Below are positions 15,501 through 45,294 of a stretch of DNA of 64,000 nt, piece after piece (position 1 is the stretch's first letter; every line of letters begins with the position of its first letter). This DNA is from Kofleriaceae bacterium. GTDB taxonomy: Bacteria > Myxococcota_A > Polyangia > Haliangiales > Haliangiaceae. Both the position numbers and the translations under genes were made by a program. The stretch lies in assembly GCA_036265355.1 (NCBI GenBank), contig DATAPF010000683.1, positions 35,457 through 99,456 of the forward strand, given 5' to 3'. The notes under the pieces are model-generated. The model did not search any database. It saw only the letters and a list, made by a program, of their open reading frames with translations, and was not told where the DNA came from.

Positions 15501-16100
15501 GTCATCGACACGCAAAGTCATGCAGTCCTCGCAGAGCTCGAGGCCCCCACCCGCGTGAGGTCGCTGCGACTGTCGCCAGGTGGGCGCCTGGTCACGATCC
15601 CGGTGCGAAGCAAACCGGCTCCGCCCGTGCTGTGGGATCTCGAGAGCTACCGTATCGTGGCTCAGCTCGCGGGCCACGCCGGTCGAGTGTTCTCGGCTCG
15701 CTTCGTGCGCGGTGGCCACGACATCATGACCTCCGCTGCGGATGGGACGGCGCGGCTGTGGGACGCCCGGACCGGTCGGCCCAGACAGATATTCTCGGCC
15801 GGCGTCGCTTTCTTGTTCGATGCAACGCTCTCGCCCGATGGTGCCATGGTCGTGGCCGGTGGTGCCGATGGTTCATTGCGATTCTGGGATGCCACCACAG
15901 GGCACCAGCTCTGGGCGCTCCCGGTGCACCGGTCCTACGTGATCGGAATCCACTTCGAGGGCGATGAGATCGTGACGCGCAGCTTCATCGGGGACGTCGC
16001 CCGCTGGTCCATGCTCCAGCCGATCTCGCCGGGGGTGCTCGGCAATCTGACCAGGTGCCAACTATCATTCTGTGATCCCACTATTAAGGTGGGTGAATGA
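12573..16100 (+). CDS. Hanks-type Ser/Thr protein kinase fused to a long WD40 beta-propeller region
   Basis: Kinase motifs are GEGGHGVVY, VVIKV, HRDLKPSN, DFGIAK, APEQ. A hydrophobic segment (LVALAVGVAIGGF) follows, then about 14-16 WD40-like units (..FSPDG..IVT...DG..RVWD..). GGAG lies about 10 nt upstream of the ATG. Confidence 0.95.
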   Translation: MVERVLSGRTLGEFILREQIGEGGHGVVYRGEQPLLERDVVIKVMRERCCDEVSQRRFLREVKLASLLDHPYAAHVYAFGVEAQDGLLWIAMERVRGVPLDRWLEAHGPMPLEQFVPFFECVAQVVHAAHEQGIVHRDLKPSNIMVVEHGGRLFPKLLDFGIAKADLEVTLPVPARWPDGSLTPDRELAEPDPDDVDTLRILRRPRSAPRIRVDPDPAGSSATLPGLTPFGACIGSQPYMAPEQWCNAEAVGPAADVYALGVVAYQALSGRLPFIADTTGEYFLQHRHEQVPSLGGSFPSDLDRAIRCALDKYPEHRPGNTLELASALRAALRASKREHLRASAQQWHDQAEVPGLLWRADVLEDAMRSVPREALSNLECSFVAESQRRIRRTRWIRRSLVALAVGVAIGGFHYRAVMQARMADQIATEAEVEQGRQALLHGESAEALLHLAQAYQRGDHSPSSMFMLSHALAPWLAERARFTTASGPMWSAAFSPDGHQIVTTDSRGARVWDAQTHQLRFALPHGDTAYQAVYSADGTTLVTAGGDGVVKMWSAATGALLRALRPPRQATGSPPRYFAVGVSPDGLVVAAIDSQGKVAHAWDAHTGALLAEIPNDGSWNPALAFSADGRWLATSGGDDVRVFDTRTWTQALTLSGQHIRTLAFDPTGPRLVTGSSEGDASIWAIPSGQRLRHLRDVGEPIDVVAFSPSGELVVTASRDGAEQVWNAGSGHVVSQLNYHRTRLTSVEFDSSSQRLLAAGLKGAVVVSDVAQGLPIAVLGGAVNAVRSAHFDPTSRRVIGASLDSTVRVWDAIPPYRRWSTLPIGVDCDTAESLEPDQRFIALSCQNHGTHVWDTARGELLAELPAVTLVDGDYYSAFPAVSAAGDRAAIARGHTVEIYALPGAHLIRTIAHGAPVNAVAFAPLGHDVISGAIDGSLFVTRDDREPLALPASAHGIDVAGFLGDRRIVAVDASRRLRVIDTQSHAVLAELEAPTRVRSLRLSPGGRLVTIPVRSKPAPPVLWDLESYRIVAQLAGHAGRVFSARFVRGGHDIMTSAADGTARLWDARTGRPRQIFSAGVAFLFDATLSPDGAMVVAGGADGSLRFWDATTGHQLWALPVHRSYVIGIHFEGDEIVTRSFIGDVARWSMLQPISPGVLGNLTRCQLSFCDPTIKVGE

Positions 16101-16756: not shown

Positions 16757-19261
16757 TCAGGGCTCATCGTCGGCATCGCTGGCGCCGTAGCCGTCCGGCG
16801 CGCCGATCGGCGGGCCGTCGGGCGGCTCGGCGGGCGGCGCCTCGAGCCGGTGCGGCTCGCGGTCGAGCTCGGCGATCTGCCGCACGGCGTAGGCGAGGTG
16901 GGCGCGCTCGGCGACGTCTGCGGTGCGCGCGGCGGCGGCCGCCGCCCAGCTGCGCAAGGCCTCCAGCTCGGCGCTGGCGATCGCGCGGCTCTGCGCCGAG
17001 GCCGCCGGGCTCTGCGACAGCGCGATCAGGTCGTTCAGCACGACCTGATCGACCACGCGGCCGATCTCGCCGCGCAGGCCGGCCTCGCGCCGGGCCTTCC
17101 AGCTCGCGGCGAGGATCGCGTCGAGCACCTCGGTGAGACCGGGGCTGTCCGGCGTGCGGGCGTGCTGCTCGATCAGCCGCGCGGCGCGCTCGGGGGTGAA
17201 CAGGAACTGCAGCGTGTGCTGGGCGGCGGCCTCGGCGGGGGCGAGCGCATCGAACACCGGCGAGGTCCGGATCTTGAAGTGCTCGCGTCCGCGCGGATAC
17301 TCCGGCGGGCGCGGCGGGATCAGCGACGCGAGCGGCTCGGGCAGCGCGAGCGCGGCGGGCGACAGCGCGGCGAGCACGGCGGTGAGCGCGCGGCGCTGCT
17401 CGGCGGGGGCGACCGGACGGGTCGCGAGCTGGCCGTCGCCGCGCAGCGCGAACGTGTAGTCGACGCCGCCGAGCAGCTTGGCCGCGGCCTCGACCTGGTA
17501 GCGATGCAGCATGTAGAGCGGGACCAGCGCGTCCTCCAGGGTGGCCAGCGGCGCGCGGTCGCGGATGCTGGCCTCGCCGAACCGCGCCAGCGCCGCGGCG
17601 CGGAGCTGCATGATCCGGCCGAGCTCGTCGACCGGGTTGCCGCCGGCGTCCCACAGGTGCGCGACGCTGCTCGCCGAGCCGGCCGGCCGCGCGTCCTGAT
17701 CGGTCAGGAACCGCTGGCCGGCGGTGAACGCAGCGAGCAGCACCTGCTCTCCGGCGGCGCGATCGTCGGTGCCGGGCGGGACCTGCTGGTAGCCCCAGGT
17801 GATCGCGACCTTGTCCCACGCGCCGATCCCGGTCGCGTAGGCCGCCGACGGATCGAGCGCGCCGTCGGGGCGCAGCGCGACCACCGGCGGCGGGTAGTCC
17901 ATCACCGAGGCGCGGCCGACCGTGCTCGCCGCGTAGTTGTGCATCAGGCCGAGCGTGTGGCCGACCTCGTGCGCGGCGAGCTGGCGCAGCCGGGCCAGCA
18001 CGAGCTGCTGCGCCGCCGGCGACGGCCCGGCCGCCGCGCCCTTGCCGTACGGCGCGAGCAGCGCCTCGGCGATCAGGTAGTCCTGGCGCGCGCGCAGCGA
18101 GCCGAGCGAGACGTGGCCCTTGAGGATCTCGCCGGTCCGCGGGTCGATCACCGTCGAGCCGTACGACCAGCCCCGGGTCGCGCGGTGGATCCACTGGATC
18201 ACGTTGTAGCGCAGGTCCATCGGGTCGGCGCCCTCGGGCAACAGCTCGACGCGGAACGCGTTGCGGTAGCCCGCGGCCTCGAACGCGGCGTTCCACCACC
18301 GCGCGCCCTCGAGCAGCGCGCCGCGGACCGGCTCGGGCACGCCGCGATCGAGGTAGTACACGATCGGCCGGACCGGATCGCTGATCGCCGCCGTCGGGTC
18401 CTTCTTCTCCAGCCGGTGGCGGGCGGCCCAGCGCTGCACGATCGGCTCGCTGAACGGCGTCGCGTAATCCTGATACGAGATGCCGAAGAAGCTCGATCGC
18501 GGGTCGTAGGCGCGCGGCCGGAACCCGGGCGGGGGCAGCTCGACGAACGAGTGGTGCTCGCGCACGGTGATCGCGCCGGGCGTCGGGGTGACCTGGCGGA
18601 CCCACGCGCCCGGGTCGTCGCCGGCGAACGTCAGCGTGGCCTCGACCTCGGTGTTGCGCGGGAAGCTCCTGGTGTGGTCGAGCACCAGCGCGCAGCGCGA
18701 GGCGTCGACGTGAAACGCGCCCTGGCCGGTGTGCTTGAGCGTCGCCGGGATGTCGTGGGCGTCGCGCAGGAAGAACTCGGTCGCGTCGACCAGCGCCCGG
18801 CCGCCGGTCTCGGCCGCGACGCTGAACCCCCACAGCGCCGACTCGGCGAACGACTCGCGGACCGCGCGCTCCTCGTCGGGCAGCGCGCCGACCGCGCGGT
18901 ATGCCAGGTTCGATTGCACCAGCAGCACCCGGGGGCCGATCCGCTCGAACCGGACCACCCGGGTCGCGCCGAGCTGGCCGCGATCGAGCCCGATGTCGTT
19001 CGAGCCGATCCCGGCGGGCAGCGCGCTCTGGTAGAGGAACTCCTGCTGCCACTGCCCGATCTCCAGCCACAGCTTGCCGGCGCGCTCGTCCCAGTACAGG
19101 TTGAACAGCCCCGGCATCGCCCGTGCGCCGGCCACCTTGTCGGCGATCGCCGGCATCGCCGGCGCGGCTGCGCCCGGCGGCTTCGGGGCGGTGCGCGGCG
19201 CAGCAGCGGCGGCACAGGCGGCGGTGAGCGCGAGCCAGACGGGGACCGAGCGCGAGAGCAT
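16757..19261 (-). CDS. Secreted zinc-dependent metalloprotease (large, DUF5117/DUF4953-type family)
   Basis: 834 aa with signal peptide MLSRSVPVWLALTAACAAAAA. Zincin motif HEVGHTLGLMHN is followed by SVMDYPPP. The family assignment is from memory of similarly sized zinc-dependent metalloprotease proteins. Confidence 0.85.
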   Translation of the reverse strand: MLSRSVPVWLALTAACAAAAAPRTAPKPPGAAAPAMPAIADKVAGARAMPGLFNLYWDERAGKLWLEIGQWQQEFLYQSALPAGIGSNDIGLDRGQLGATRVVRFERIGPRVLLVQSNLAYRAVGALPDEERAVRESFAESALWGFSVAAETGGRALVDATEFFLRDAHDIPATLKHTGQGAFHVDASRCALVLDHTRSFPRNTEVEATLTFAGDDPGAWVRQVTPTPGAITVREHHSFVELPPPGFRPRAYDPRSSFFGISYQDYATPFSEPIVQRWAARHRLEKKDPTAAISDPVRPIVYYLDRGVPEPVRGALLEGARWWNAAFEAAGYRNAFRVELLPEGADPMDLRYNVIQWIHRATRGWSYGSTVIDPRTGEILKGHVSLGSLRARQDYLIAEALLAPYGKGAAAGPSPAAQQLVLARLRQLAAHEVGHTLGLMHNYAASTVGRASVMDYPPPVVALRPDGALDPSAAYATGIGAWDKVAITWGYQQVPPGTDDRAAGEQVLLAAFTAGQRFLTDQDARPAGSASSVAHLWDAGGNPVDELGRIMQLRAAALARFGEASIRDRAPLATLEDALVPLYMLHRYQVEAAAKLLGGVDYTFALRGDGQLATRPVAPAEQRRALTAVLAALSPAALALPEPLASLIPPRPPEYPRGREHFKIRTSPVFDALAPAEAAAQHTLQFLFTPERAARLIEQHARTPDSPGLTEVLDAILAASWKARREAGLRGEIGRVVDQVVLNDLIALSQSPAASAQSRAIASAELEALRSWAAAAAARTADVAERAHLAYAVRQIAELDREPHRLEAPPAEPPDGPPIGAPDGYGASDADDEP

Positions 19262-19342
19262 GGATACCTCCGCCGCATGCGTATCACCATCGCGCGGCGC
19301 GAGGGGTACGGGGTGTCAGAGCCGGCCGGTAGGGTAGCGCCC

Positions 19343-20317
19343 ATGCAGCTGGTCGAGATCGGACGCAACGAGCCCTGCCCGTGCGGCAGCGGCCGCAAGT
19401 ACAAGAAGTGCTGCCTCGCGGCGCGCGACGCCGCGGTCGCCGCGGAGCCGGAGATGGTGGCTGCCGTCGACCAGGCGATCGAGGACGACGACTGGGAGGC
19501 GCTGCACGACCGCATGGATGCAGGGATGGCCGTGTTCCAGCGCGGCGCGCCCCTGGAGCACGTCCGGTTCCCGCAGGATCAGATCCGCTCGCGCAACCCC
19601 GATCGCGCGGAGATGGCGAAGATGTGCAGCGCCGGCTGGCTCCGCCGCGCCGAGCTGGAGATCGCGCACGTGCTCGACCGCTTCCGGCTCGACGCCGCGC
19701 AGCGCGACGGCCTGCGCCTGGCGGCCTACCTGCTGCGCCGGTTCGGCGCGGTGTCGCCCACGGTCGAGGAGGTCGCCCAGCTCCAGGTCGCCGAGCACAT
19801 GCAGCGCGTGCGGCGGTTCGCCGAGGCGGTGTCCTCCCGCGGGCTCACCATGGAGGAGGTGATGGCCGACATGGACGGCCTGCTCGGCTGGATCGAGCGC
19901 GTCCGGCCCACGGTGCTGTCGTTCGCCGAGTGGTTCGCGCTGCGGATCGCCACCGACGAGCAGATCCACGGGAGATGGCTGTCCGGCATCTCCATGCGGG
20001 TGTGCGAGGCCTGCCTCGACCAGCTCGAGGATCCATCCGGCGAGGATCCGCGCATCTGGCTGCTGCTCGCGGCGTCCACGTTGTTCGTCGATCGCTCGCC
20101 GCTCGGCCGCGTGCTCGCGGAGCTGACCTCGCCGCGCCAGCTGACCGAGTCCGAGCGGATGCTCCATGCAGGGCTCGCCGGCACACAGCCGACCCAGGAG
20201 CTTCGGGGCTTCGTGCCCCGGAGCGTCCGCGAGACGGAAGGCCGCGGGGACTTCGCCGACGCCGCGCTGTTGCGCGCGCTGATCCAGGACGTTCAGAGCT
20301 CGCACGGGTCCAGATGA
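19343..20317 (+). CDS. SEC-C motif domain protein, otherwise uncharacterised and helical
   Basis: ATG 19343 gives MQLVEIGRNEPCPCGSGRKYKKCC (SEC-C metal-binding motif) at the N-terminus. The upstream part of listed ORF 16850..20317 is antisense to the protease and is rejected. An alternative ATG at 19277 lies only 15 nt from the divergent gene. Confidence 0.75.
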   Translation: MQLVEIGRNEPCPCGSGRKYKKCCLAARDAAVAAEPEMVAAVDQAIEDDDWEALHDRMDAGMAVFQRGAPLEHVRFPQDQIRSRNPDRAEMAKMCSAGWLRRAELEIAHVLDRFRLDAAQRDGLRLAAYLLRRFGAVSPTVEEVAQLQVAEHMQRVRRFAEAVSSRGLTMEEVMADMDGLLGWIERVRPTVLSFAEWFALRIATDEQIHGRWLSGISMRVCEACLDQLEDPSGEDPRIWLLLAASTLFVDRSPLGRVLAELTSPRQLTESERMLHAGLAGTQPTQELRGFVPRSVRETEGRGDFADAALLRALIQDVQSSHGSR

Positions 20318-20413
20318 TCGCGATGCGGAACGCACGATGCGCTCGTCGACCCTATATTATTAATGCTTGGGCAAGAGAAGCCAATCGACGATCGACTCTA
20401 TTAGGGTAACACC

Positions 20414-23400
20414 TCACGATATCGGCTCACCACATTCCGGGCGAACGAAGCAGGCTTGCCATCCTCTTTCCAATCCGAACGATCCATCTCCTTGCTGAAT
20501 TGAGAAAAGGTGTTTACATTCATCCCTTTTCATTCCGGGGCAGACTGCTTCGCAAGCTTTGCGCGCACCATCGATGGCCTCCTTTCGGTCCATCGCGTCA
20601 AAGCAGATCGTTGATCTAACCCTGTTGGGACCAGGCCGTGGCCCTGGTGGAGCTGGCACACACGAAGCAGCTGTGTGCTCCGCCGTGCTCCCCACCGTAG
20701 GACCGCCGAACGGGCCGGCCCCAGACTGATAACTGGAGGGTTGAGGGTCGAACATGGGCATGATGACCGGCGCAATCGAAGCTCGGTCCAGCGCGGATGT
20801 GATGCGGAGGAAGGCATGGTTGGGGCGGAAAGGCACCTGGCTGGGTGCGGTTCCGGTGATGTCGAACCAGTTGATGGGGTCGGCAAAGCTGTATGTATAG
20901 AGATTTGACCCACCCGCAAAGCGGCCAGGGTCCTTGCTCGTCCACCGCCCGGTTGCACCATCGTATTCCCTCGCGCCGAAGTGTACGAGTCCGGTGTCCT
21001 TGTCGTACAGGCCACCCGCGAAGCCGAACGGCTGGAAGCCCGGGCTCGAGTCCGTCAGAACCTTGCCCCATGGATCGTAGGTGATCGACTGCATCACGGT
21101 TCCGTCCGAGGTACGGACGACACTTCGGACGCTGCCGAGGTGATCGGTGATGATCGCGTACGTCGCCCCGCCGCGGATGAAGTAGGCGGGCGTGTGCGAC
21201 AGCGGGCCGTAGACGTACCGCGTCGTCACCGTGCCGGATGCGTTTACCTCGGCCGCGACTTGCCGGGAGTTGCGGTACACGAATCGGTTCGTGATCGATC
21301 CGTTGAGCAGTCGAGTGATCCTTCGCCCCAAGGCGTCAAGGCCATACGTTACCGTGCCTCGACCGGCCGGAAGCGCGGCGCTGAGGAGCTGGCCGCGACC
21401 GTCGTAGGTGTACGTCGTGACGCTGGTCCCGGACGTGACAGTGGAAAGCTCACCATTGGCCGTGTACGTGTACGTCGCACCGAAGCCGGCCGTCATCCGG
21501 TCCTGCGCGTCGATGACCGCGCCGCCGTCGGTGCGGTTGCCGTTCGCGTCGTACGTGTACGTTGCGTCGACGACCCCGTTCTTGGTGGTGCCGATCAGGC
21601 GGCTATTCGCGTCGTAGGAGTAGCCGAACGTCGTCGACTTTTCCTTCTTGGTCTCGACGCGCGCCAACGAATCGAAGGTGTACGTCGGCGCGTACACCGT
21701 CGTGCCCGGGGCCGTCACGGTGAGCTTTTTCATCGCGCCGAACGCATCGTAGCTGTACGACCACTGGATGCCATCGACCGACGCATCCGTGGCTTGGCCA
21801 GTCGAGTCGCGCGTGATCGATAGCGCGCCGACGTCGGTGATCAGACCGTCGAGATCGCGGAGCACATGGATGGTCGTGCCGGTGCCGACCCGCTCGCTGG
21901 CGACCCGGAGCTTGGCGTCGTACGTCCACCGCACCACACCCGGTGCGGCACCGGTCGCGGTGACCACCGTCAGCAGGAAGCCATCGTAGCTGTACGCTAG
22001 CGAGTTGCCCGACGGACCGGTGAGGCTCGCCAAGCGGCCTGCGGCGTCGTACGCCGCGCCGATGGTGCTCACGCCGAAGGTCAGCGTTGCCACCCGCCCC
22101 ACAGCGTCACGGCTCACCGCGATCGTCGAGCCATCTGCGCGTGTCTCGCTCGCGAACGCCTGGTCGCCATCGTACGACGTGAGCGTGGCGGGACTACCCG
22201 GTGGCATGTACGACGTCTCGTTGTCGTCGCCGTTGTAGGCCAAGCCGTGTGCCGGCTTTCCCGGTGGCGCAACGCTGGTCGCGTTGTCAGCTGGGTCGTA
22301 TCCAATCGCCAGTGTCCCTCCGTCGGGATGAACCACCGACGTCACACGACCGACGGCGTCGCGCAGCGTCCGCACGGCGTTGCCCTGCGCGTCATGGATC
22401 TCCGCCAGGAACCCGCTGGTCGCGTCGTAGACGGCATCGATGTGGCGCGTGCCCTGCGCGATCGAGGCGACGCGGCCGTGCGCATCGTAGCTGACGGTCA
22501 CCGGCGTGATGCCTGGGACGGTCAGCTGGGTCGTGCGGCCGTGCGCGTCGACGACCGACGACAACACGCGACCGCTCGGGGTGGTCCACGTCGTGGTCCG
22601 CGTCGCCGCATCCCACAGCCGGTCCCACGTGCCGTCGGCATCATCGGTCGACGTGTCGAGCTGGGTCAGCGAGGTCAGCGCACCGCTGCCGTCCGCGAAC
22701 GTCGCGGTCGAGGTCGTGCTCGCCGACGCGATCAGACCGCTCGGCAGCGTGATCGTCTGCTCACCGACGAGCGGCGCGAGCATGCCCCACTGCGGGTCGG
22801 GGTCCTCTCGCACGACGCTGACCGTTCCGTCGGGATAGGTCGTGGTGCTCGTGCCATCGCTGCCGCGCGTCCACGAGAGCTTCGTTCCGTCTTCGTAGGT
22901 CAGCGCGCGCTGCTCGGTGCCGTCGAGAAGGACCTGGAGATCGTGACCGCGCGTGCGGCCGAGCGCCGTTGCCACATCGACGTGCACCGGGGTGCTGGAG
23001 GTGCGGGTCAAGGTCCAGCGCGCCCCGGCGGGGCTGGTGTCGGTCGCGAGCCGACCCTGGGCATCGTAGGTCATCACGTGGCTGCCGCCGCGCGGATCGA
23101 CGAGCTGGGTGAGCCGCCCTCCGGCCTGGTACGACAGCGCGGTCACGCGGCCGAGCGGATCGGTCGCGCTCGCGAGGTTGCCGTCGGCGTCGTAGCTCAG
23201 CGTCATGGTCTGCCCGAACGGGGCGTGGATCGCGGTCGCGCGTCCGGCGCCGTCGCGCTCCAGCGTGACCGCGTTGCCATCGGCATCGGTGACGCTGGTC
23301 AGGTAGCCGTCCGCGTCGTAGCCGAAGCTCTGCACAACCGCGAAGGTCGAGCCGTTCAGCGTCTGCAGGTGGCGGCCGGTGCCGTCGAACACGTACACGA

Positions 23401-26194
23401 AGCTGCCGTCCTGCTCGGGAATCACGATCTGCGTGCCCTGCTCGCGCGGCAGCGGCGCGCCCATGCGCAGCACGCGATCGATGCCCTCGCTCGCGACCAG
23501 ATCGTCCGACGGGCTGACCGTCATCCCGCCGATCGCGCTGATCAGCAGCCGGCGCGTCGGCGTCGGGATCGCGTCGTCGTTGCCACCGCCTGCATGGGTC
23601 GAGATCGTCCCGCGCGGGTTGACCTTGCGGATCACCCCGCCCTGCAGCTCTGCGATGTACACGCTGCCGTCGGGCGCCACCGCCACCCGGAACGGTTCGT
23701 TCAGCGCCGCCTGCTTTGCGGAGCCGCCGTCGCCAGTGGTCGCGGCAATGCCGGTACCGGCGAACGTGTGGATCGTGCCGTCGGGGGTGATCCGGCGAAC
23801 CTTGTGGTACTCGCGCTCGGCCACGTACACGCTCCCGTCGGGCCCGACCGCGATGCCGAGCGGCGTGCCCAGGGTCGCCGCGCGGGCGCTGCCGCCTTCG
23901 CCATCCCCGGCCGTGGTCGCCAGGCCCGCGTAGACCCGCGCGCGGCCGTTGTTGCCGACGCGATAGACGAGCGAGACGTCCTGCACGTAGAGGGTGCCGT
24001 CGTCGGCCAGCGCGAGCTCCTCGGGCCGGTCGAGCAGCACGTCGCTGCCCGTCGCGGTTCCGGCATCGAGCAAGGTGCTGCCGCCGCCGAGGACGGTCCG
24101 GATCGTCCCGCCGGGATCGATGCAGCGCACCTTCGCGACCCCGGTGTCCGCGATGCACAGCGTGCCGTCGCCGCCGAGCGCCAGCCCACGCGGCTCGCTG
24201 AGCTGCGCCGCCGCGGCAGGCCCGCCGTCGCCGGCGGACCCCGCGACGCCGGTGCCCGCGATCGTGGTGATGATCCCCGCCGCGTCGATCTTGCGAACCC
24301 GGTGGTTGGCCGAATCGGCGACGAAGATCGCGCCGTCCGGGGCCGCCGCCACGCCGAGCGGCAGGTTCAGCTGCGCGTCGGTCGCCGGTCCGTTGTCGCC
24401 GGAGAACCCGGTGCCGTTGCCGCCCGCCTGCCGCTCGGTCACCGAGAACAGTCCCTGCGCATGGCGGCGGCGTCCGTCGCCGAAGTGCAGGACCTGGCTA
24501 TCCGGATCGTAGACGTGATGGCTCGACAGCGTCCATCCGCCGAGGCCGAGCGTGCTCGCGTGCCAGACCCCGACCGGGGCGTCATAGCGCCGCGCCAGCG
24601 TGATTTCCTGCCGGGTCGGGTCGGTGGTGAGCGTGGTCTGATCCGGGATCTCGCCGAACGCCGGGGTCTGCAGGTAGACGCCGTCGTAGACCAGCCCGAC
24701 GTTCACGCTCGCGAGCGTGGTTCCCGGCCAGGTCCGTCCGAACGCGTCGAGCCCATTCCACGTGAACGTGTGGGTCAGGTGGGGTGTCACGGTCGCATAC
24801 TCCGCGTGGGTTCGCACGCCGAGCACATCGACGTCCACGACCGCGCGCTTGACCCCGGGCGGCACAGTGTCGCCGGTGATCGGGATCGCGATCGAGAACT
24901 CGGCGGTCCGCCCGGGAACGCGGTCGCTCTCGTAATGAAGCGCCATCCCCGTGCCGACCAGGTCGATATCGTCGCCGAGCGTCTGATCCTCGCACGCGAT
25001 CGTCGACGCGCCGGACATCTCGCAGCGCTCGTCGCTGCGATCGCCGTTGCCGTCTGCCTCGACCGGCCCGTCCGCACCATCCGGGGGCGCCTGGCCGTCG
25101 TTGAAGTCGAGGAACGAGAAATGCGCGAGCGGGACGCGCCAGTACGACGTGCCGGCCGAAGCAAAGCCGGCGAGCGCCGCGAGCTCGCCGGGCGTTGCGC
25201 CAGCGAGATTGTCGGCCACGCCGTCGCCATCACCATCGAGCGCGAGCTGGCCATTCGCTCCTGTCACCACCGCGACGACGCGTCCGCTAGGCTCGGCGCT
25301 CCAGGTGTCGCCGGATGCGACGTAGGTCCCAGAGGGGACTGGCACGCCGACCTTCTTGTGCAGGAAATTATCGACGTAGGAGATGACGTTGGCGTCGAAC
25401 CGCACGGTCTTCGCAGCGCTCGCCTCGTCGAAGCCGAGCGCGGTCGCGTAGGTGTACGCCACGGTGGGCGCGATCTCGCCCGGCATCGCCGATGGGCCGA
25501 GCGCGCCGCGCGTGAACTCGGTGACGCGCAAGGTTCCGTGGGGCAGCGCGGACTGGGTGCCGTCCTGTGCAACTGCGGTCGCATGCACGCCGGGCGGAAA
25601 CAGCACGTGCATCGTCCGCGCTCCGTTGCTGTCGCTTACCGTGTCGCCCGCCGCAACTTGCCACGCCGACGCGCCGTTGAGGTCGACGGCGGTCGTCTTC
25701 GCCGAGGCCGGCAGCAGTGCGACATCGGGCAGCACGGCGTACTTGCCCCATCGCGTTCGAGCCGAGCGCTGCGCGGAGAACCGTCCGGCGGCGTCGATCC
25801 GCAGCGTGACGCGCCCTCCGCCTTGGACCACGAAGTCGAAGCTTCCGCTGGCGGGCGTGGTGATCGCGCCCCACTCGGGATGGCCGGGAATGCTGACCTG
25901 CGCGCCGGCGAGCGGTGCACCGCTCTCGTTGGTGACCCGGCCGCGAATCACCGCGGTCCGCGCGCGCGAGAAGGACGACTGCGCAGCGTTGTGCTGCACG
26001 GCCTGCCCGCGCGCACCGCCCTGGAACAGGAACTCCACCGAGTCGTAGAACGAGACCGCGCCGGTGGCATGGATGGGCGGCGGCCGCAGCCCTTCTGGTG
26101 AGCCGTCGCCGTCCACGTGGGACTCGCTGCATCCACTCGAGACCAATGCGGTCGCCATTGCGAGCGACACCGTTACGCCACTCCTGATCTTCAT
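20414..26194 (-). CDS. Lipoprotein Rhs/YD-repeat protein with NHL propeller (teneurin-like module order) and a 145-aa variable C-terminal tip
   Basis: Lipobox is MKIRSGVTVSLAMATALVSSGC. Next is a carboxypeptidase-regulatory-like segment (VIRGRVTNESGAPLAGAQVSI). NHL-type blades occupy residues about 590-915 (AGTGVAGSAGDGGPAAAAQLSEPRGLALGGDGTLCIAD etc.). Dozens of YD repeats follow (YDADGNLASATDPLGRVTALSY...). The Rhs core ends at GLVHFGAREYDGATGRWTSKDPGRFAGGSNLYTYSFADPINWFDITG, followed by a tail. Confidence 0.95.
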   Translation of the reverse strand: MKIRSGVTVSLAMATALVSSGCSESHVDGDGSPEGLRPPPIHATGAVSFYDSVEFLFQGGARGQAVQHNAAQSSFSRARTAVIRGRVTNESGAPLAGAQVSIPGHPEWGAITTPASGSFDFVVQGGGRVTLRIDAAGRFSAQRSARTRWGKYAVLPDVALLPASAKTTAVDLNGASAWQVAAGDTVSDSNGARTMHVLFPPGVHATAVAQDGTQSALPHGTLRVTEFTRGALGPSAMPGEIAPTVAYTYATALGFDEASAAKTVRFDANVISYVDNFLHKKVGVPVPSGTYVASGDTWSAEPSGRVVAVVTGANGQLALDGDGDGVADNLAGATPGELAALAGFASAGTSYWRVPLAHFSFLDFNDGQAPPDGADGPVEADGNGDRSDERCEMSGASTIACEDQTLGDDIDLVGTGMALHYESDRVPGRTAEFSIAIPITGDTVPPGVKRAVVDVDVLGVRTHAEYATVTPHLTHTFTWNGLDAFGRTWPGTTLASVNVGLVYDGVYLQTPAFGEIPDQTTLTTDPTRQEITLARRYDAPVGVWHASTLGLGGWTLSSHHVYDPDSQVLHFGDGRRRHAQGLFSVTERQAGGNGTGFSGDNGPATDAQLNLPLGVAAAPDGAIFVADSANHRVRKIDAAGIITTIAGTGVAGSAGDGGPAAAAQLSEPRGLALGGDGTLCIADTGVAKVRCIDPGGTIRTVLGGGSTLLDAGTATGSDVLLDRPEELALADDGTLYVQDVSLVYRVGNNGRARVYAGLATTAGDGEGGSARAATLGTPLGIAVGPDGSVYVAEREYHKVRRITPDGTIHTFAGTGIAATTGDGGSAKQAALNEPFRVAVAPDGSVYIAELQGGVIRKVNPRGTISTHAGGGNDDAIPTPTRRLLISAIGGMTVSPSDDLVASEGIDRVLRMGAPLPREQGTQIVIPEQDGSFVYVFDGTGRHLQTLNGSTFAVVQSFGYDADGYLTSVTDADGNAVTLERDGAGRATAIHAPFGQTMTLSYDADGNLASATDPLGRVTALSYQAGGRLTQLVDPRGGSHVMTYDAQGRLATDTSPAGARWTLTRTSSTPVHVDVATALGRTRGHDLQVLLDGTEQRALTYEDGTKLSWTRGSDGTSTTTYPDGTVSVVREDPDPQWGMLAPLVGEQTITLPSGLIASASTTSTATFADGSGALTSLTQLDTSTDDADGTWDRLWDAATRTTTWTTPSGRVLSSVVDAHGRTTQLTVPGITPVTVSYDAHGRVASIAQGTRHIDAVYDATSGFLAEIHDAQGNAVRTLRDAVGRVTSVVHPDGGTLAIGYDPADNATSVAPPGKPAHGLAYNGDDNETSYMPPGSPATLTSYDGDQAFASETRADGSTIAVSRDAVGRVATLTFGVSTIGAAYDAAGRLASLTGPSGNSLAYSYDGFLLTVVTATGAAPGVVRWTYDAKLRVASERVGTGTTIHVLRDLDGLITDVGALSITRDSTGQATDASVDGIQWSYSYDAFGAMKKLTVTAPGTTVYAPTYTFDSLARVETKKEKSTTFGYSYDANSRLIGTTKNGVVDATYTYDANGNRTDGGAVIDAQDRMTAGFGATYTYTANGELSTVTSGTSVTTYTYDGRGQLLSAALPAGRGTVTYGLDALGRRITRLLNGSITNRFVYRNSRQVAAEVNASGTVTTRYVYGPLSHTPAYFIRGGATYAIITDHLGSVRSVVRTSDGTVMQSITYDPWGKVLTDSSPGFQPFGFAGGLYDKDTGLVHFGAREYDGATGRWTSKDPGRFAGGSNLYTYSFADPINWFDITGTAPSQVPFRPNHAFLRITSALDRASIAPVIMPMFDPQPSSYQSGAGPFGGPTVGSTAEHTAASCVPAPPGPRPGPNRVRSTICFDAMDRKEAIDGARKACEAVCPGMKRDECKHLFSIQQGDGSFGLERGWQACFVRPECGEPIS

Positions 26195-40588: not shown

Positions 40589-42760
40589 ATGCGCCGCACC
40601 GGTCCCGCTCCATTCCTCGCGCTGGCCCTCGGCCTCGCCGCATGCAGCCTCCCCGAGTCCGCGTTCCAGGCCACGCCCGACGCGGGCTCCGGCCCCGGCA
40701 GCGGGATGACCGACGTGCTGGCGATCGTCGTGTCCAGCCCGGCGATCGACGTCGATGAGGGCGCGACCACCGACTTCACCGTGCAGCTCAACCACGCGCC
40801 GGGCGCGCCGCTCGAGATCGACCTGTCGGCCGCGTCGCAGAAGATCGGCCTGTCGATGCAGAAGCTGTTCTTCGACGCGAACAACTTCGCGCAGGGCCAG
40901 ACCGTCACGGTCACCGGGGTGGTCGACGACGACACCGCGACCGAGCTCGCCCAGATCGTGCTGTCCGGCGCCGGCGTCGCGGACCTGATGGTCGGCGCGA
41001 CCGTGCACGACCCCGACAAGGTGACGATCGTCGCCGACATCACCGACGGTGCCACGGTCAACGAGGGCAAGTCGAAGGACGTCCACGTCCACCTGTCGCA
41101 CCGGCCCCCCGGCGACGTCGCGGTCAGCGCGACGATGTCGAGCGGGCCGATGACCGTGTCGCCGCCCAGCCAGGTGTTCCACATGGACGACGGCTTCAGC
41201 ACCGACGTGACGTTCACGCTGAGCGCGCCGGTCGACCAGAACGTCGCCAACGAGAGCCAGACGATCACGTTCGCGATCGCCGGCGGCGATCAGCGGATCA
41301 TCCAGGTCACCGACGTCGACAAGGACAGCCTGTCGATCCAGACCTCCCCGCAGTCGATCTCGCACCTGCTCGAGGGCGACGGCGTCACGCTCAACCTGAC
41401 GCTGAGCTTGCAGCCGGCGTCCGACGTGACCGTCCAGGTCGGCACCAGGACCGGCAAGGCGCAGATCAGCGCGACGTCGGTGACGTTCAAGGCGGCGGGC
41501 ACCGACTACATGACGAACCACCCGATCACGATCACCGCGCCGCAGGACGACAACACGACGCCCGAGACCGACACCATCGTGCTGACCATGCTGAACCACC
41601 CGGAGGTCACCGCGATCAACATCCCGGTGCAGATCGACGACGACGACGTCCAGTCGATCCAGACCACCGTGATCAACTCGCTGACCGTGACCGAGGGGAT
41701 GGCCAGGTCGTTCGGCGTGACCCTCAAGTTTGCGCCGATCCCCGGCAGCCCGGTCACCGTGAACCTGTCGACCGCCGATCCCACCGTTGCCACCGCGGGG
41801 GCGCACTCGACGGGTGCCAACTTCTTGACCTTCACGGACATGAACTACAACGATCCGGCGATGCACCAGGTGGACGTGCAGGGCACCCAGGACAGCAACC
41901 TGGTGACCAACTCGACCACGGTGAAGCTGATCTCGGGCACGCTGGAGACCGACGTCGCGGTCGATGTCCTCGACGATGACACCGAGGCGTTCACGCTGAG
42001 CCAGACCACGTCGCTGACGATCCCCGAGGGCACGCCGAAGACGTTCACCGTCGCGCTGGCGTTCCAGCCGACCGCCGCGGTCCACGTGATGCTGACCAGC
42101 ACCAACAGCACCGCGGTCCCGGTGTCACCGGCGACCCTCGACTTCTCGACCACCAACTGGCAGACCCCGCAGACCGTCACGCTCAGCCCGCCGACCGACA
42201 CCAACAACGTGTCGGAGTCCGCGACGATCTCGGTGATCGCGACCGGGATCCCGACCGCCACGCTGATGGTCACCGTGATGGACGCGACCCAGATCAACAG
42301 CTACGGCTACCCGGCGCCGCCGGCGTTCGGCGGTAGCTTCGCGATGCAGCAGGGTCAGGTGATCGCCTACAAGGTCACGGTGCCGAACTCGACGCTCGAC
42401 ACGATGTCGGTCAACGTGCCGACCGCCTCGGCCGACTTCCGCATGGCGCTGTACACCGACAACGGCAACACGCCGGGCGCGCTGGTCAACGCGGCGCAGT
42501 TCCTGCGCCGGACCCTGGTCAACGGCGCCAACACCGTCGACATCGCCGACGTGCCGCTGACCGCCGGCAGCTACTGGATCGCGCTGCGGATCGGCGGTCC
42601 GACCGGGCTGAGCGCGGGGGATGCCAGCCAGACCGGGGTGAGGTGCACGCGGACATTCAATATCAACAGCCTGGATGACGCGTGGCCCGTGAATTTCGGG
42701 ACCGCGGACTGCGTAAATACCAATCTGTTCAACTTCTGGATGACAACGTACCACCAATGA
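40589..42760 (+). CDS. Lipoprotein with five tandem Calx-beta/cadherin-like repeats and a distinct C-terminal domain
   Basis: Lipobox is MRRTGPAPFLALALGLAAC. There are five units of about 100 aa, each of the form ..V.EG....F.V.L...P...V.V........(V/I)SP..L.F....W...Q.V.V....D.....E...I.......V.V.D.D. The ATG lies 1 nt after the upstream stop. Confidence 0.85.
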   Translation: MRRTGPAPFLALALGLAACSLPESAFQATPDAGSGPGSGMTDVLAIVVSSPAIDVDEGATTDFTVQLNHAPGAPLEIDLSAASQKIGLSMQKLFFDANNFAQGQTVTVTGVVDDDTATELAQIVLSGAGVADLMVGATVHDPDKVTIVADITDGATVNEGKSKDVHVHLSHRPPGDVAVSATMSSGPMTVSPPSQVFHMDDGFSTDVTFTLSAPVDQNVANESQTITFAIAGGDQRIIQVTDVDKDSLSIQTSPQSISHLLEGDGVTLNLTLSLQPASDVTVQVGTRTGKAQISATSVTFKAAGTDYMTNHPITITAPQDDNTTPETDTIVLTMLNHPEVTAINIPVQIDDDDVQSIQTTVINSLTVTEGMARSFGVTLKFAPIPGSPVTVNLSTADPTVATAGAHSTGANFLTFTDMNYNDPAMHQVDVQGTQDSNLVTNSTTVKLISGTLETDVAVDVLDDDTEAFTLSQTTSLTIPEGTPKTFTVALAFQPTAAVHVMLTSTNSTAVPVSPATLDFSTTNWQTPQTVTLSPPTDTNNVSESATISVIATGIPTATLMVTVMDATQINSYGYPAPPAFGGSFAMQQGQVIAYKVTVPNSTLDTMSVNVPTASADFRMALYTDNGNTPGALVNAAQFLRRTLVNGANTVDIADVPLTAGSYWIALRIGGPTGLSAGDASQTGVRCTRTFNINSLDDAWPVNFGTADCVNTNLFNFWMTTYHQ

Positions 42761-45294
42761 AATCCCTACCGCTGATCGCTGTCCTGTGTGCGACGTCCAC
42801 GCTCGCGCAGGCCCAGAACAACATGTGCGTGCCGCGCGCGCTCGGCGTGCCGACCCGCGACGGCCCGCCGGACTGGCTCCGGACCCGGACGTCCAAGGTC
42901 AACGGCGCGACCCTGCCACCCAACGACGCGCTCGACGATCCGCGGTGGCTCGGCGCGACCGGCCAGACGTTCGCGCTCGGCAGCGCCAAGGCGCCGCTCC
43001 AGGCGCGCGCGCTGATCAGCACCGAGGATGCGGTCGCCCCGGTGACCAAGTACGTGTACCTGTCGTTCATCGTCGACCTCGACGCCTACGACACCCCGTC
43101 GGCGTCCGAGGTCACGCCGCGCGATCTGTTCCTCGGCTTCCACCGCCCGGGGGCGCCGGCGGGCGGCGAGCGCGGCTACGTGTTCCAGTTCCACCTGACC
43201 GGGCCGGGCGGCGCGCTGTCGACCCACGGCATGGTCACGTCGGCGCCGCCGCCGTGCGACGACTACGCGACCTGCGACGAGGACGCGTCGAGCACGCCGC
43301 ACGACTACTGGCGGGTGTTCCGCGACACCGGCAACACCGCGAGCTACGACTGCAGCGGCCCCGCGGTCGGCGGCCGCGAGCTCGGCGTGCCGGCGGCACC
43401 GGGCACCTCGGCCGCGGCGGCGCCGTGGATGGTGAGCCAGGACGCGGTGCGCTACTGGAAGGTCTCGGCCGGCGATCCGTCGCCGTTCACGCAGAACCGC
43501 TGGGCGGTGCAGATCCGGCTCCCGATGGTCGCGGCCGACGCGAGCAAGACCTCGAACCTTGCCAACGGCATCGAGGAGGGCTCGACGTTCTACTACGAGG
43601 CGACCGGCCGGCTCGCGCACGGCCCGAGCACCGGCACGTTCGCGCCGATCGGCTGGTACCCGCAGACGGCGTCGCTGCGGCCCCCGGTGTGCACCCACAC
43701 CGGCTTCAACACCCTGGTCACCGCCGAGATGAGCGACAACACGGCGGACTGCCCGAACTGCCAGCTCACCAACCTCGCGAAGCTGTCCGACCTCGGGCTC
43801 GGCACGCCCGCGACGTGCGACGGCGGGATCGACATCGACATCGATCACATCGGCGTGCTCAACACCGCGGTGCCGACCGACCCCGAGACGATCGGCCCGG
43901 GCACCGGCTCGCCGCTCAACACGGCGTTCCTCGGCGCGAGCCCGACCTCGGGGACGGTGATCAACCACGTGATCGCGCTGCCGGTGAACACCGCGGCGGG
44001 CACGATCAAGCCGCACCTCCAGGCCCGGTTCCGGCTCGCCGAGTGGGGCTCCGCGCCGTGGTCGGTGCCGGGTGACCTCGGCCAGTGGGCCGACATCCGC
44101 GGCGCCGAGAGCGGGATCTGCGCCAAGCCGCCGACCGGCACCGAACTCTGCGGCGAGAGCGACATGGCTTCCGGCAAGCACGCGCTGATCACGTTCGACT
44201 GGCAGATCGGCAGCGGCCCGAGCGGCGCGAGCGAGTACTGCGAGTTCGGCCTGACCCCGCCGACCGGGACCTGCGGCTCGTGCACCCTCGGCGGCGGCGC
44301 CACCGGGACCCAGGCGACCGGCGGCCTGTGCGTGCCGTCGTTCTACCGGTTCGATCAGTGCATGCTGGTCGAGCTGAACTCGCCCAACGCCCCGGCGACG
44401 TTCGTCCACCAGAGCATCTGGAGCAACATGCGGTTCGGCACGATGTCGACGCTGGCGCACGAGGCGCTGATCGACGCCCGCAAGCTGCCGACCGCGCCGG
44501 GCCAGCTGTACCAGGACATCTACTTCGTGGCGGTGCCGCGCAACATGCCGCAGGTCCTGCCGGCGACGACGACCACCGTCTCGACCGTCCAGACCGCGGC
44601 GCTCAACCTCGCGCTCCACATCGCACAGCCCTACCTCGACGATATCAAGCGCCAGCCGCCGATCCCGGTGGTCGGCGTTCCCCGGCCCAGGCCGTTCGAG
44701 CGCGGCGGCGGCGACAACAACCCGGTCGTCCAGCAGATCCTGCGCGCCCGCGAGGTGATGCCGCCGGCCGACGTGCGCCGGGTCGACGGCCTGCTCACCG
44801 TCGCGCTCGCCCAGAGCCCCAACACCAACCCGAGCTCGACGCTGGTCCACGGCGCGGTCGGCGCGGTCGGGTCGTCGACCGCGGCCGAGCTGGTGCCGAC
44901 CCTCGACATCTATCCGTACTACCAGGTCGACGCCAGGGGCCGGCTGTACTCGCCGATGACCTCGTTCTCGCTGTTCCTCAGCCACGAGAGCACGCTGTCC
45001 GGGATCCGCTACCAGATCGACGGCGCCGACCAGGTCGGCGCGAACGTGTACCACCTGCGGATCCCGATCGGGAACGCGCGCAGGATCCAGGTCCGGGCCC
45101 AGGCGCTGGCCTCCAACGAGGTCCCGCTGCCGCGGGGCAACCCGGCGTGGCCGTGCGCCGGCGGCTGCGCCGCGTGCGGCGGTGTGAACCGGAGCTGCGG
45201 CCTGGTCGCGGCGGTGGGCAGCGGCGGGCCCGGGCTGCTCGCCTGCGTGTGGGTGGTCGGGCGGCGGCGCCGGCAGTCGAAGCGGAAGGGATAG
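42757..45294 (+). CDS. Large Cys-rich secreted protein with a MYXO-CTERM-like C-terminal sorting tail; no recognisable catalytic domain
   Basis: ATG 42757 overlaps the upstream stop (ATGA). Signal is MKSLPLIAVLCATSTLAQAQ. The tail is PCAGGCAACGGVNRSCGLVAAVGSGGPGLLACVWVVGRRRRQSKRKG (Cys/Gly motif, hydrophobic helix, Arg cluster). Confidence 0.85.
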   Translation: MKSLPLIAVLCATSTLAQAQNNMCVPRALGVPTRDGPPDWLRTRTSKVNGATLPPNDALDDPRWLGATGQTFALGSAKAPLQARALISTEDAVAPVTKYVYLSFIVDLDAYDTPSASEVTPRDLFLGFHRPGAPAGGERGYVFQFHLTGPGGALSTHGMVTSAPPPCDDYATCDEDASSTPHDYWRVFRDTGNTASYDCSGPAVGGRELGVPAAPGTSAAAAPWMVSQDAVRYWKVSAGDPSPFTQNRWAVQIRLPMVAADASKTSNLANGIEEGSTFYYEATGRLAHGPSTGTFAPIGWYPQTASLRPPVCTHTGFNTLVTAEMSDNTADCPNCQLTNLAKLSDLGLGTPATCDGGIDIDIDHIGVLNTAVPTDPETIGPGTGSPLNTAFLGASPTSGTVINHVIALPVNTAAGTIKPHLQARFRLAEWGSAPWSVPGDLGQWADIRGAESGICAKPPTGTELCGESDMASGKHALITFDWQIGSGPSGASEYCEFGLTPPTGTCGSCTLGGGATGTQATGGLCVPSFYRFDQCMLVELNSPNAPATFVHQSIWSNMRFGTMSTLAHEALIDARKLPTAPGQLYQDIYFVAVPRNMPQVLPATTTTVSTVQTAALNLALHIAQPYLDDIKRQPPIPVVGVPRPRPFERGGGDNNPVVQQILRAREVMPPADVRRVDGLLTVALAQSPNTNPSSTLVHGAVGAVGSSTAAELVPTLDIYPYYQVDARGRLYSPMTSFSLFLSHESTLSGIRYQIDGADQVGANVYHLRIPIGNARRIQVRAQALASNEVPLPRGNPAWPCAGGCAACGGVNRSCGLVAAVGSGGPGLLACVWVVGRRRRQSKRKG

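Follow-up and report, generated by a model that had tools for sequence, protein, structure and literature searches.

A Kofleriaceae gene for a predicted lipoprotein with the bacterial teneurin-like architecture and an unrecognised C-terminal cargo

In the nervous systems of animals, teneurins serve as essential wiring receptors. Their presumed origin is a bacterial YD toxin, an ancestor whose living relatives are the bacterial proteins that have the complete teneurin superfold. The question raised by the gene studied here, which occupies positions 20414..26194 on the minus strand of a 64,000-nucleotide stretch of Kofleriaceae DNA (contig DATAPF010000683.1; the whole stretch is called the window below), is whether its 1926-residue product is a protein of this kind, or whether it resembles teneurins only through generic YD repeats, and what such a protein would do for the cell. 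An earlier reading of the DNA, made without database searches and called here the sequence-only reading, had proposed that the product is a lipoprotein with the module order of the teneurin ectodomain. Its architectural reading is confirmed, and the protein belongs to a family that has been published before, the bacterial teneurin-like proteins (TLPs), by its domain composition, its fold and the conservation of its catalytic and cleavage-site residues. As for function, we consider it probable that the gene encodes a Sec-exported, lipid-anchored Rhs/YD polymorphic toxin of the TLP family, with a variable cargo directed at other cells.

Bacterial TLPs were first noted by Jackson et al. in 2018 (PMC5851990), and their structure and function were described by Raoelijaona et al. 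(Nat Commun 2026; PMC13018210) for the Bacillus inaquosorum protein (BiTLP; PDB 9IFO/9PT5). According to the latter work, TLPs are built from TTR, TIP, FN-plug, NHL and YD-shell domains plus a variable cargo; animals lack TIP, which 96% of bacterial TLPs have between TTR and plug. TLP genes occur in more than 20% of Myxococcota species, and the TLPs of Gram-negative bacteria, including Myxococcota, are predicted signal peptidase II (SPII) lipoproteins. The cargo averages about 15 kDa, is cleaved and enclosed in the shell, and in several cases is toxic in E. coli (PMC13018210). The present locus is a minimal Kofleriaceae example of this plan (lipobox, TTR, TIP, plug, NHL and shell), and it confirms the published picture without changing it. 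Compared with published TLPs, only two things about it are unusual: its unrecognisable cargo and the lack of an adjacent immunity gene.

Domain order and fold of the encoded protein

The gene is a single open reading frame (ORF) of 1926 codons plus a stop, with the ATG at 26194 being the first start codon past the upstream in-frame stop. The sequence-only reading had given the product and its position correctly and had left the minus strand unstated, and all of the motifs that it quoted are found in the translation: LVSSGC at residues 17-22, the TTR-like VIRGRVTNESG... from residue 82, the plug motifs STIACEDQTLG... at residue 397 and LGLGGWTLSSHH at residue 549, and DPINWFDITG at residues 1772-1781, after which a 145-residue tail follows. 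The window is about 72% G+C, and its true reading frames have a G+C content at third codon positions (GC3) of about 0.85-0.96. An exact-sequence look-up of the full protein returned no identical record, the recorded copies differing by 1-2 residues. The segments of the protein, with the evidence that identifies each of them, are as follows.

26129..26194, minus strand: signal peptide and lipobox, residues 1-22 (MKIRSGVTVSLAMATALVSSG followed by C22), read from the translation
25718..25972, minus strand: TTR domain, residues 75-159, from Pfam TTR_TEN1-4, CarboxypepD_reg and the BiTLP alignment
25058..25717, minus strand: TIP ("teneurin insertion protein") domain, residues ~160-379, from a profile match to BiTLP
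24440..25057, minus strand: FN-plug domain, residues ~380-585, from a profile search and the BiTLP alignment
23459..24439, minus strand: six-bladed NHL beta-propeller, residues ~586-912, from Pfam and the AlphaFold model
21080..23458, minus strand: teneurin-type YD-repeat shell, residues ~913-1705, from Pfam and colinear alignments
20849..21079, minus strand: Rhs-associated core, predicted aspartyl self-cleavage module, residues 1706-1782, from NCBIfam and the 9pt5 alignment
20417..20848, minus strand: variable C-terminal cargo (C-terminal domain, CTD), residues 1783-1926, from its position after the predicted cut

At the N terminus, K2 and R4 are followed by a hydrophobic stretch at residues 6-19 and then by S-G-C22. 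A Cys equivalent to C22 also follows the hydrophobic stretch in relatives P0002-P0006 and P0008-P0010, and C22 is predicted from the sequence to be the lipidated first residue of the mature protein. Beyond the lipobox, Pfam TTR_TEN1-4 matches residues 75-159 (E=1.6e-15, 57 bits against a cut-off of 27), and the same region matches Pfam CarboxypepD_reg (E=7e-8) and aligns to the TTR region of BiTLP. The propeller is matched by Pfam TEN_NHL (E=1.1e-34) and NHL (E=2.7e-19), the shell by Pfam TEN_YD-shell over residues 933-1755 (E=1e-31, 110 bits against a cut-off of 50), and residues 1706-1781 by NCBIfam Rhs_assc_core (E=1.1e-19), with Pfam RHS_repeat matching in 9 stretches (E=7.8e-37). All three teneurin-specific models (TTR, NHL and YD shell) score above their Pfam cut-offs. 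The shell is colinear with teneurin-4 residues 751-1601 and with BiTLP residues 1248-2144.

For the plug, we used a profile of residues 380-590 with 18 homologues (19 sequences) and searched it against 177,635 distinct PDB sequences. Its only matches are the TLP, with E=5e-71, and, at their FN-plug positions, animal teneurins, with E values between 5e-35 and 8e-27; Pfam FN-plug_TEN1-4 matches 14 of the 19 family members, with 9e-12 as the best value. Between the TTR domain and the plug lies a highly conserved domain that the sequence-only reading left out of its module list, the TIP domain at residues ~160-379. Its mean column identity is 58% in a 12-sequence alignment, and a profile of residues 160-379 finds in the PDB solely BiTLP residues 480-705 (E=1e-95), with nothing else below E=0.9 and no teneurin among the matches; no Pfam family matched the region. 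The order of TTR, plug, NHL, YD shell and cargo that had been likened to that of the teneurins is thus present, and the likeness is incomplete in that an extra, bacterial-only TIP of 220 residues stands between TTR and plug.

We also modeled residues 23-1000 with AlphaFold2 from a 38-sequence alignment, and the model has a mean predicted local distance difference test score (pLDDT) of 85.5 and a predicted template modeling score (pTM) of 0.79. The NHL propeller, which had been expected at residues ~590-915, appears in the model as six four-stranded blades at residues ~585-912 (pLDDT ~85-97), and TIP consists largely of beta-strands, for the most part at pLDDT above 85. When the model is compared with the PDB by Foldseek, the best 13 matches are the bacterial TLP (2.4e-57) and then 12 animal teneurin entries (4.9e-50 to 5.7e-35). 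The teneurin matches have TM-scores, normalised to the query, of up to 0.57 over ~990-1050 alignment columns, and beyond the first 13 only isolated NHL domains are matched, at about 1e-19. From the Pfam models, the plug profile and the AlphaFold and Foldseek results, we conclude that the TTR, plug and NHL arrangement proposed for residues 80-915 holds.

The best sequence match in the PDB is the cryo-EM structure of BiTLP (9pt5/9ifo; E=0, 1027 bits), with an alignment that is contiguous over residues 29-705 and 905-1782. Animal teneurins rank next by phmmer (E=6e-86 to 3e-64), with the shell colinear over residues 931-1757, whereas Rhs proteins from type VI secretion systems (T6SS) are weaker (E=8e-37 at best, down to 1e-19) and align solely at C-terminal residues 1525-1781. 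Because the teneurins align colinearly and the Rhs proteins only over the last ~250 residues, the teneurin similarity is specific and is not the generic similarity of YD repeats. Both the phmmer ranking and the span of the alignments place the protein closer to teneurins than to ordinary Rhs proteins, as the sequence-only reading had anticipated.

Self-cleavage residues and the variable cargo

A residue-by-residue alignment to 9pt5 places the following residues opposite functional positions described for BiTLP (PMC13018210).

R1742, aligned with BiTLP R2103: catalytic Arg, where mutation reduces autoproteolysis
D1755 (DPGR), aligned with BiTLP D2116: aspartyl protease catalytic residue
D1778 (DITG), aligned with BiTLP D2140: aspartyl protease catalytic residue
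T1782, aligned with BiTLP L2144: final residue before the cut
C391, aligned with BiTLP C719: plug Cys, in a disulfide with the cargo in BiTLP
G395-A396-S397, aligned with BiTLP G723/S724: plug self-cleavage site in BiTLP

Across 38 homologues, conservation of S397 is at least 90%. From these residues, self-cleavage is predicted after T1782 and would release a fragment of 144 residues and 15.3 kDa, which agrees with the published family mean of about 15 kDa.

To what, then, is this fragment related? A scan of one genome per species, with an 11-sequence alignment, found 278 relatives of the protein. Near-identical proteins with at most 2 residues different occur in JGI and Logan assemblies from several samples, and the metagenome-assembled genome (MAG) of a Kofleriaceae bacterium (Myxococcota, Haliangiales) has an annotated partial copy whose tail is identical. 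Four further relatives have 76-83% identity, covering 93% of the protein, and carry unrelated tails, so the variable tip that had been suggested is indeed variable. Five close relatives have four unrelated tails, and the divergence starts exactly after the DxxG motif and cleavage site.

Searches with the cargo itself, which has 7 Cys, returned no relatives outside its own cluster. There was no match to Pfam at E<=10, and phmmer against the tails of 123 homologues found same-cluster members only. An exhaustive phmmer search of 1.84 billion representative proteins gave 0 matches at E<=1e-3, a result that is weaker than it looks because clustering at 50% may hide other tails. A word-indexed search of 5.8 billion clusters also gave 0, and it carries little weight because it missed even the protein's own cluster (P0001). 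A metagenome scan with six cargo peptides gave 148 pattern matches, 0 of which were confirmed. In a single-sequence AlphaFold model, about 80 residues that are predicted to be disordered are followed by a Cys-rich beta-alpha-alpha-beta-beta domain of about 60 residues, with pLDDT 58 overall and 68-87 across CTD residues 81-140; Foldseek found no match for this model in the PDB (best E=1.0).

The cargo DNA looks imported because its GC3 is 0.59, compared with 0.77-0.94 in the rest of the gene. Its G+C content by codon position is 0.61/0.59/0.59, which is no pattern at all. We also compared the gene with one sister allele, L003, which is 97.4% identical in nucleotide sequence across the final 1941 nt. 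The cargo differs from that of L003 by 11 amino-acid-changing and 3 silent codon differences (ratio of amino-acid-changing to silent change, pN/pS, ~1.05), whereas the preceding 500 shell codons (residues 1283-1781) differ by 10 amino-acid-changing and 22 silent ones (pN/pS 0.16). The contrast between cargo and shell has a Fisher p=0.004 and rests on few events (14 cargo codon differences between two sequences). In both alleles the cargo frame is open over 145 codons, and all 7 Cys are kept.

Downstream flank and the possible role of the protein

An immunity gene is reported to follow "almost all" TLP genes (PMC13018210). Next to the stop codon of the present gene, the window contains the following neighbor.

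19343..20317, plus strand: SEC-C motif protein of 324 aa (Pfam SEC-C E=2.7e-10), with the N-terminal metal-binding motif CPCGSGRKYKKCC

The SEC-C gene is convergent with the TLP gene, ends 96 nt from its stop codon and has native codon usage (GC3 0.94), while the body of its product beyond the motif is helical and has no family match. We rejected it as an immunity protein because it is convergent, has native codon usage and is replaced in the sister allele. After the first ~90 nt, the sequence downstream of the gene in L003 differs and contains an IstB-like insertion sequence (IS) fragment in place of the SEC-C gene; in at least one strain, therefore, a mobile element has rearranged the locus. 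At L003 positions 1941-2355, a 43-nt GC-rich insertion precedes this fragment, which is frameshifted and resembles the IS21 helper ATPase. Two minus-strand candidates were also set aside. The 339-aa ORF at 19316..20335, the sole same-strand ORF there, is an antisense shadow of the SEC-C gene (GC1, the first-position counterpart of GC3, 0.93; GC3 0.73), and the 40-aa ORF at 20401..20523, which lies in another frame across the final 110 nt of the TLP gene, is open in L003 with a different C terminus and is probably no gene. A terminator scan of the convergent gap found none.

The three closest relatives with readable flanks, each of which lies in another neighborhood, likewise have no small co-directional downstream gene. 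Their downstream neighbors are:

a convergent hybrid histidine kinase gene, 6 nt away
a rhomboid gene, also convergent, at 57 nt
a DUF3160 gene encoding over 700 aa

Among more distant TLP loci, 29 of 54 have an ORF of at least 60 aa that starts -60 to +30 nt from the stop codon and often overlaps it, as counted by a crude ORF heuristic and not by gene calling.

If the protein works as its published homologue does, its life would run as follows. After Sec export, lipidation at C22 and a cut by signal peptidase II, all three predicted from the signal sequence, it would be a 198-kDa envelope lipoprotein, located by analogy probably in the outer membrane or at the cell surface. The YD repeats would form a closed shell, with the FN-plug sealing its N-terminal side and the NHL propeller alongside. 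The Rhs core, with R1742, D1755 and D1778, would cut after about T1782, and the 15-kDa C-terminal fragment would stay trapped in the shell; by the same analogy, the plug is likely to be self-cut as well, at G395-A396/S397. Contact with another cell would then release the cargo, which would act on a target. Encapsulation, both cleavages and cargo toxicity are taken here from the published homologue and would apply to the present protein by analogy, and lipidation, surface exposure, delivery and the action of this particular cargo are inferences. Because the cargo matches nothing known and no immunity gene is adjacent, siblings are a less likely target than prey or non-kin; alternatively, the cargo is non-toxic for its producer.

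Several observations weigh against a toxin for use on other cells. The cargo has no recognisable toxin fold or family, and its first ~80 residues are predicted to be disordered. Its fast change fits diversifying selection and equally fits decay. There is no co-directional gene 3′ of the TLP gene where an immunity gene, a typical though non-defining companion, was looked for. The Pfam FN-plug model is weak on this very protein (E=0.0075, 16.9 bits, under the 27.8 cut-off), and delivery machinery is not known for any TLP (PMC13018210). Some of these observations would be accounted for if the scaffold were the working part, in surface adhesion or recognition as in animal teneurins, and the C-terminal fragment were a drifting, non-toxic leftover. 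The fragment being non-toxic, no immunity gene would be needed, in line with the flanks of the window and of its three closest readable relatives; the shell is under purifying selection (pN/pS 0.16) while the cargo is at ~1.05, half of the cargo is predicted to be disordered and neither a homologue nor a fold could be detected for it, and the authors of the BiTLP work left open a part in cell-cell communication or adhesion (PMC13018210). However, the Rhs self-cleavage residues are intact here, whereas animal teneurins lost that motif on ceasing to be toxins (PMC13018210). The four unrelated tails in five close relatives, exchanged exactly at the cleavage site, are a signature of toxin-tip swapping and not of neglect, the cargo frame with its 7 Cys has stayed open over 145 codons in two alleles, and the selection estimate comes from 14 codon differences between two sequences. 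We therefore regard a working scaffold with an idle tail as unlikely, though it is the alternative that we take most seriously.

More improbable still is that the gene is a decaying remnant without current function, in which recombination or deletion has swapped the toxin-immunity module for foreign DNA that happens to stay open. The missing codon-position pattern and homologues of the cargo, its pN/pS of about 1, the missing immunity gene and the IS21-type IstB fragment just downstream in the sister allele would all fit such an event. Yet the other 1780 codons are intact, with the low pN/pS of the 500 compared codons, and the same full-length protein recurs in several samples with at most 2 residues different. 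By our estimate, 145 open codons at ~60% GC have about a 1% likelihood of arising by chance, and the last ~60 residues are modeled as compact from a single sequence (pLDDT 68-87). The remaining possibility, that this is an ordinary T6SS Rhs effector or the BC part of a Tc toxin and that its teneurin likeness is merely that of YD repeats in general, we give hardly any credence. It would explain the RHS_repeat and Rhs_assc_core matches and the T6SS Rhs structures found at 1e-37 to 1e-19, but those matches span the last ~250 residues, whereas teneurins and the TLP match the whole protein, and TTR, TIP, FN-plug and NHL are absent from the T6SS Rhs and Tc families. As judged from the sequence, a Sec/lipoprotein signal stands in place of a PAAR or VgrG-binding N terminus, and the 64 kb, scanned over 29 neighboring ORFs, yielded no gene for a secretion system (T6SS included), VgrG, PAAR, a chaperone or TcA.

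A TLP that arms its producer against other cells is thus the reading we favor, and the locus provides a test case for how a shell-enclosed cargo exits from a lipid-anchored TLP without a known injection machine. If it is true that TLPs work without an immunity protein, this would point towards targets outside the producer's kind, or a non-toxic, adhesion-type role. As a conjecture that we hold only loosely, the small Kofleriaceae-like clade (five full-length proteins with 76-83% identity or closer) might have kept the scaffold while lacking the toxin-immunity logic, and might be a lineage part-way from toxin to adhesion, or might carry a predator's weapon solely for targets that the producer lacks.

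Comparison with related systems and the rest of the window

The protein shares with published TLPs the full order of TTR, TIP, FN-plug, NHL, YD shell, Rhs core and short variable cargo, as well as, by sequence, the catalytic R/D/D, the plug Cys and Ser and the ~15-kDa cargo; a lipoprotein-type signal like that reported for Myxococcota TLPs is predicted from its N terminus. It differs from TLPs such as BiTLP in having no N-terminal Ig, PKD or other adhesin domains, so that TTR comes almost directly after the lipobox, and in its second cleavage motif, which is DITG and not DPxG. It also differs in that its cargo is unrelated to any described class and no immunity gene lies downstream, which is true of its closest clade as well.

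With the metazoan teneurins (Ten1-4 and Ten-m; PDB 6FB3, 7BAM and 8R50), it has in common TTR, FN-plug, a six-bladed NHL and the YD-shell superfold, whereas the TIP insertion is found in the bacterial protein only. Teneurins have, in place of the lipobox of the present protein, a membrane helix of type II together with a cytoplasmic domain and EGF repeats, and Pfam matched no Ten_N or EGF domain in the present protein. They also have external ABD/Tox-GHH C-terminal domains, which the present protein lacks while keeping the Rhs self-cleavage motif.

T6SS Rhs effectors (Pseudomonas protegens RhsA, 7Q97; Tse5, 8CP6) and TcB-TcC cocoons resemble it in the YD shell around a self-cleaved variable toxin and in the Rhs core motif. 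Unlike it, they have another plug and no TTR, TIP or NHL, and they are delivered by PAAR/VgrG on the T6SS or by the TcA injector. No Tc structure is among the 60 PDB sequence matches listed or the best 50 Foldseek matches.

SitA proteins are small polymorphic toxins that myxobacteria reportedly pass between cells by outer-membrane exchange (Vassallo et al. 2017). They bear a lipobox and variable toxin domains at the C terminus, come with SitI immunity genes, and have no YD shell or self-cleavage. The lipobox and the variable C-terminal domain are shared with the present protein, and such exchange might, speculatively, be a route for a lipoprotein toxin into a neighboring cell; the window contains neither a TraA nor a TraB gene.

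TLP relatives with 34-51% identity over residues 23-1000 were also found at loci L004-L083. The labels of their genomes include Planctomycetota, Nitrospira, Chloroflexota (Dehalococcoidia and Ardenticatenaceae), Gemmatimonadota, Verrucomicrobiota, Oligoflexia and Binatia, among others, and binning errors may account for some of the MAG labels (e.g., Enterobacteriaceae and Rickettsiales). In the 2026 paper, six phyla are listed for TLPs (PMC13018210).

The neighbors of the gene in the window include a Ser/Thr kinase with WD40, a Met-zincin, an AAA_16 ATPase, a CHRD protein, metabolic genes, two-component systems and a chemotaxis cluster, and several of these are given here with their positions.

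12573-16100, plus strand: 1175-aa Ser/Thr protein kinase fused to a long WD40 beta-propeller, a typical myxobacterial signalling protein
16757-19261, minus strand: 834-aa protein with DUF5117 and Met-zincin (DUF4953, E=1e-62), probably a secreted metalloprotease, two genes downstream of the TLP gene
40589-42760, plus strand: secreted-looking protein of 723 aa
42682-45294, plus strand: secreted-looking protein of 870 aa
56005-61186, minus strand: chemotaxis-type cluster with a 1011-aa methyl-accepting protein and then a CheA-like kinase with Hpt, HATPase and CheW

The two secreted-looking proteins have a GC3 of 0.96 and no Pfam or NCBIfam match. At the end of the 870-aa protein, a Cys-rich stretch is followed by a hydrophobic segment and an Arg/Lys tail, which together resemble a MYXO-CTERM sorting signal; NCBIfam did not confirm this likeness (ORF 42682..45294). 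The 723-aa protein starts with a lipobox-like LAAC, and the region 40589-45294 has a marked positive AT skew.

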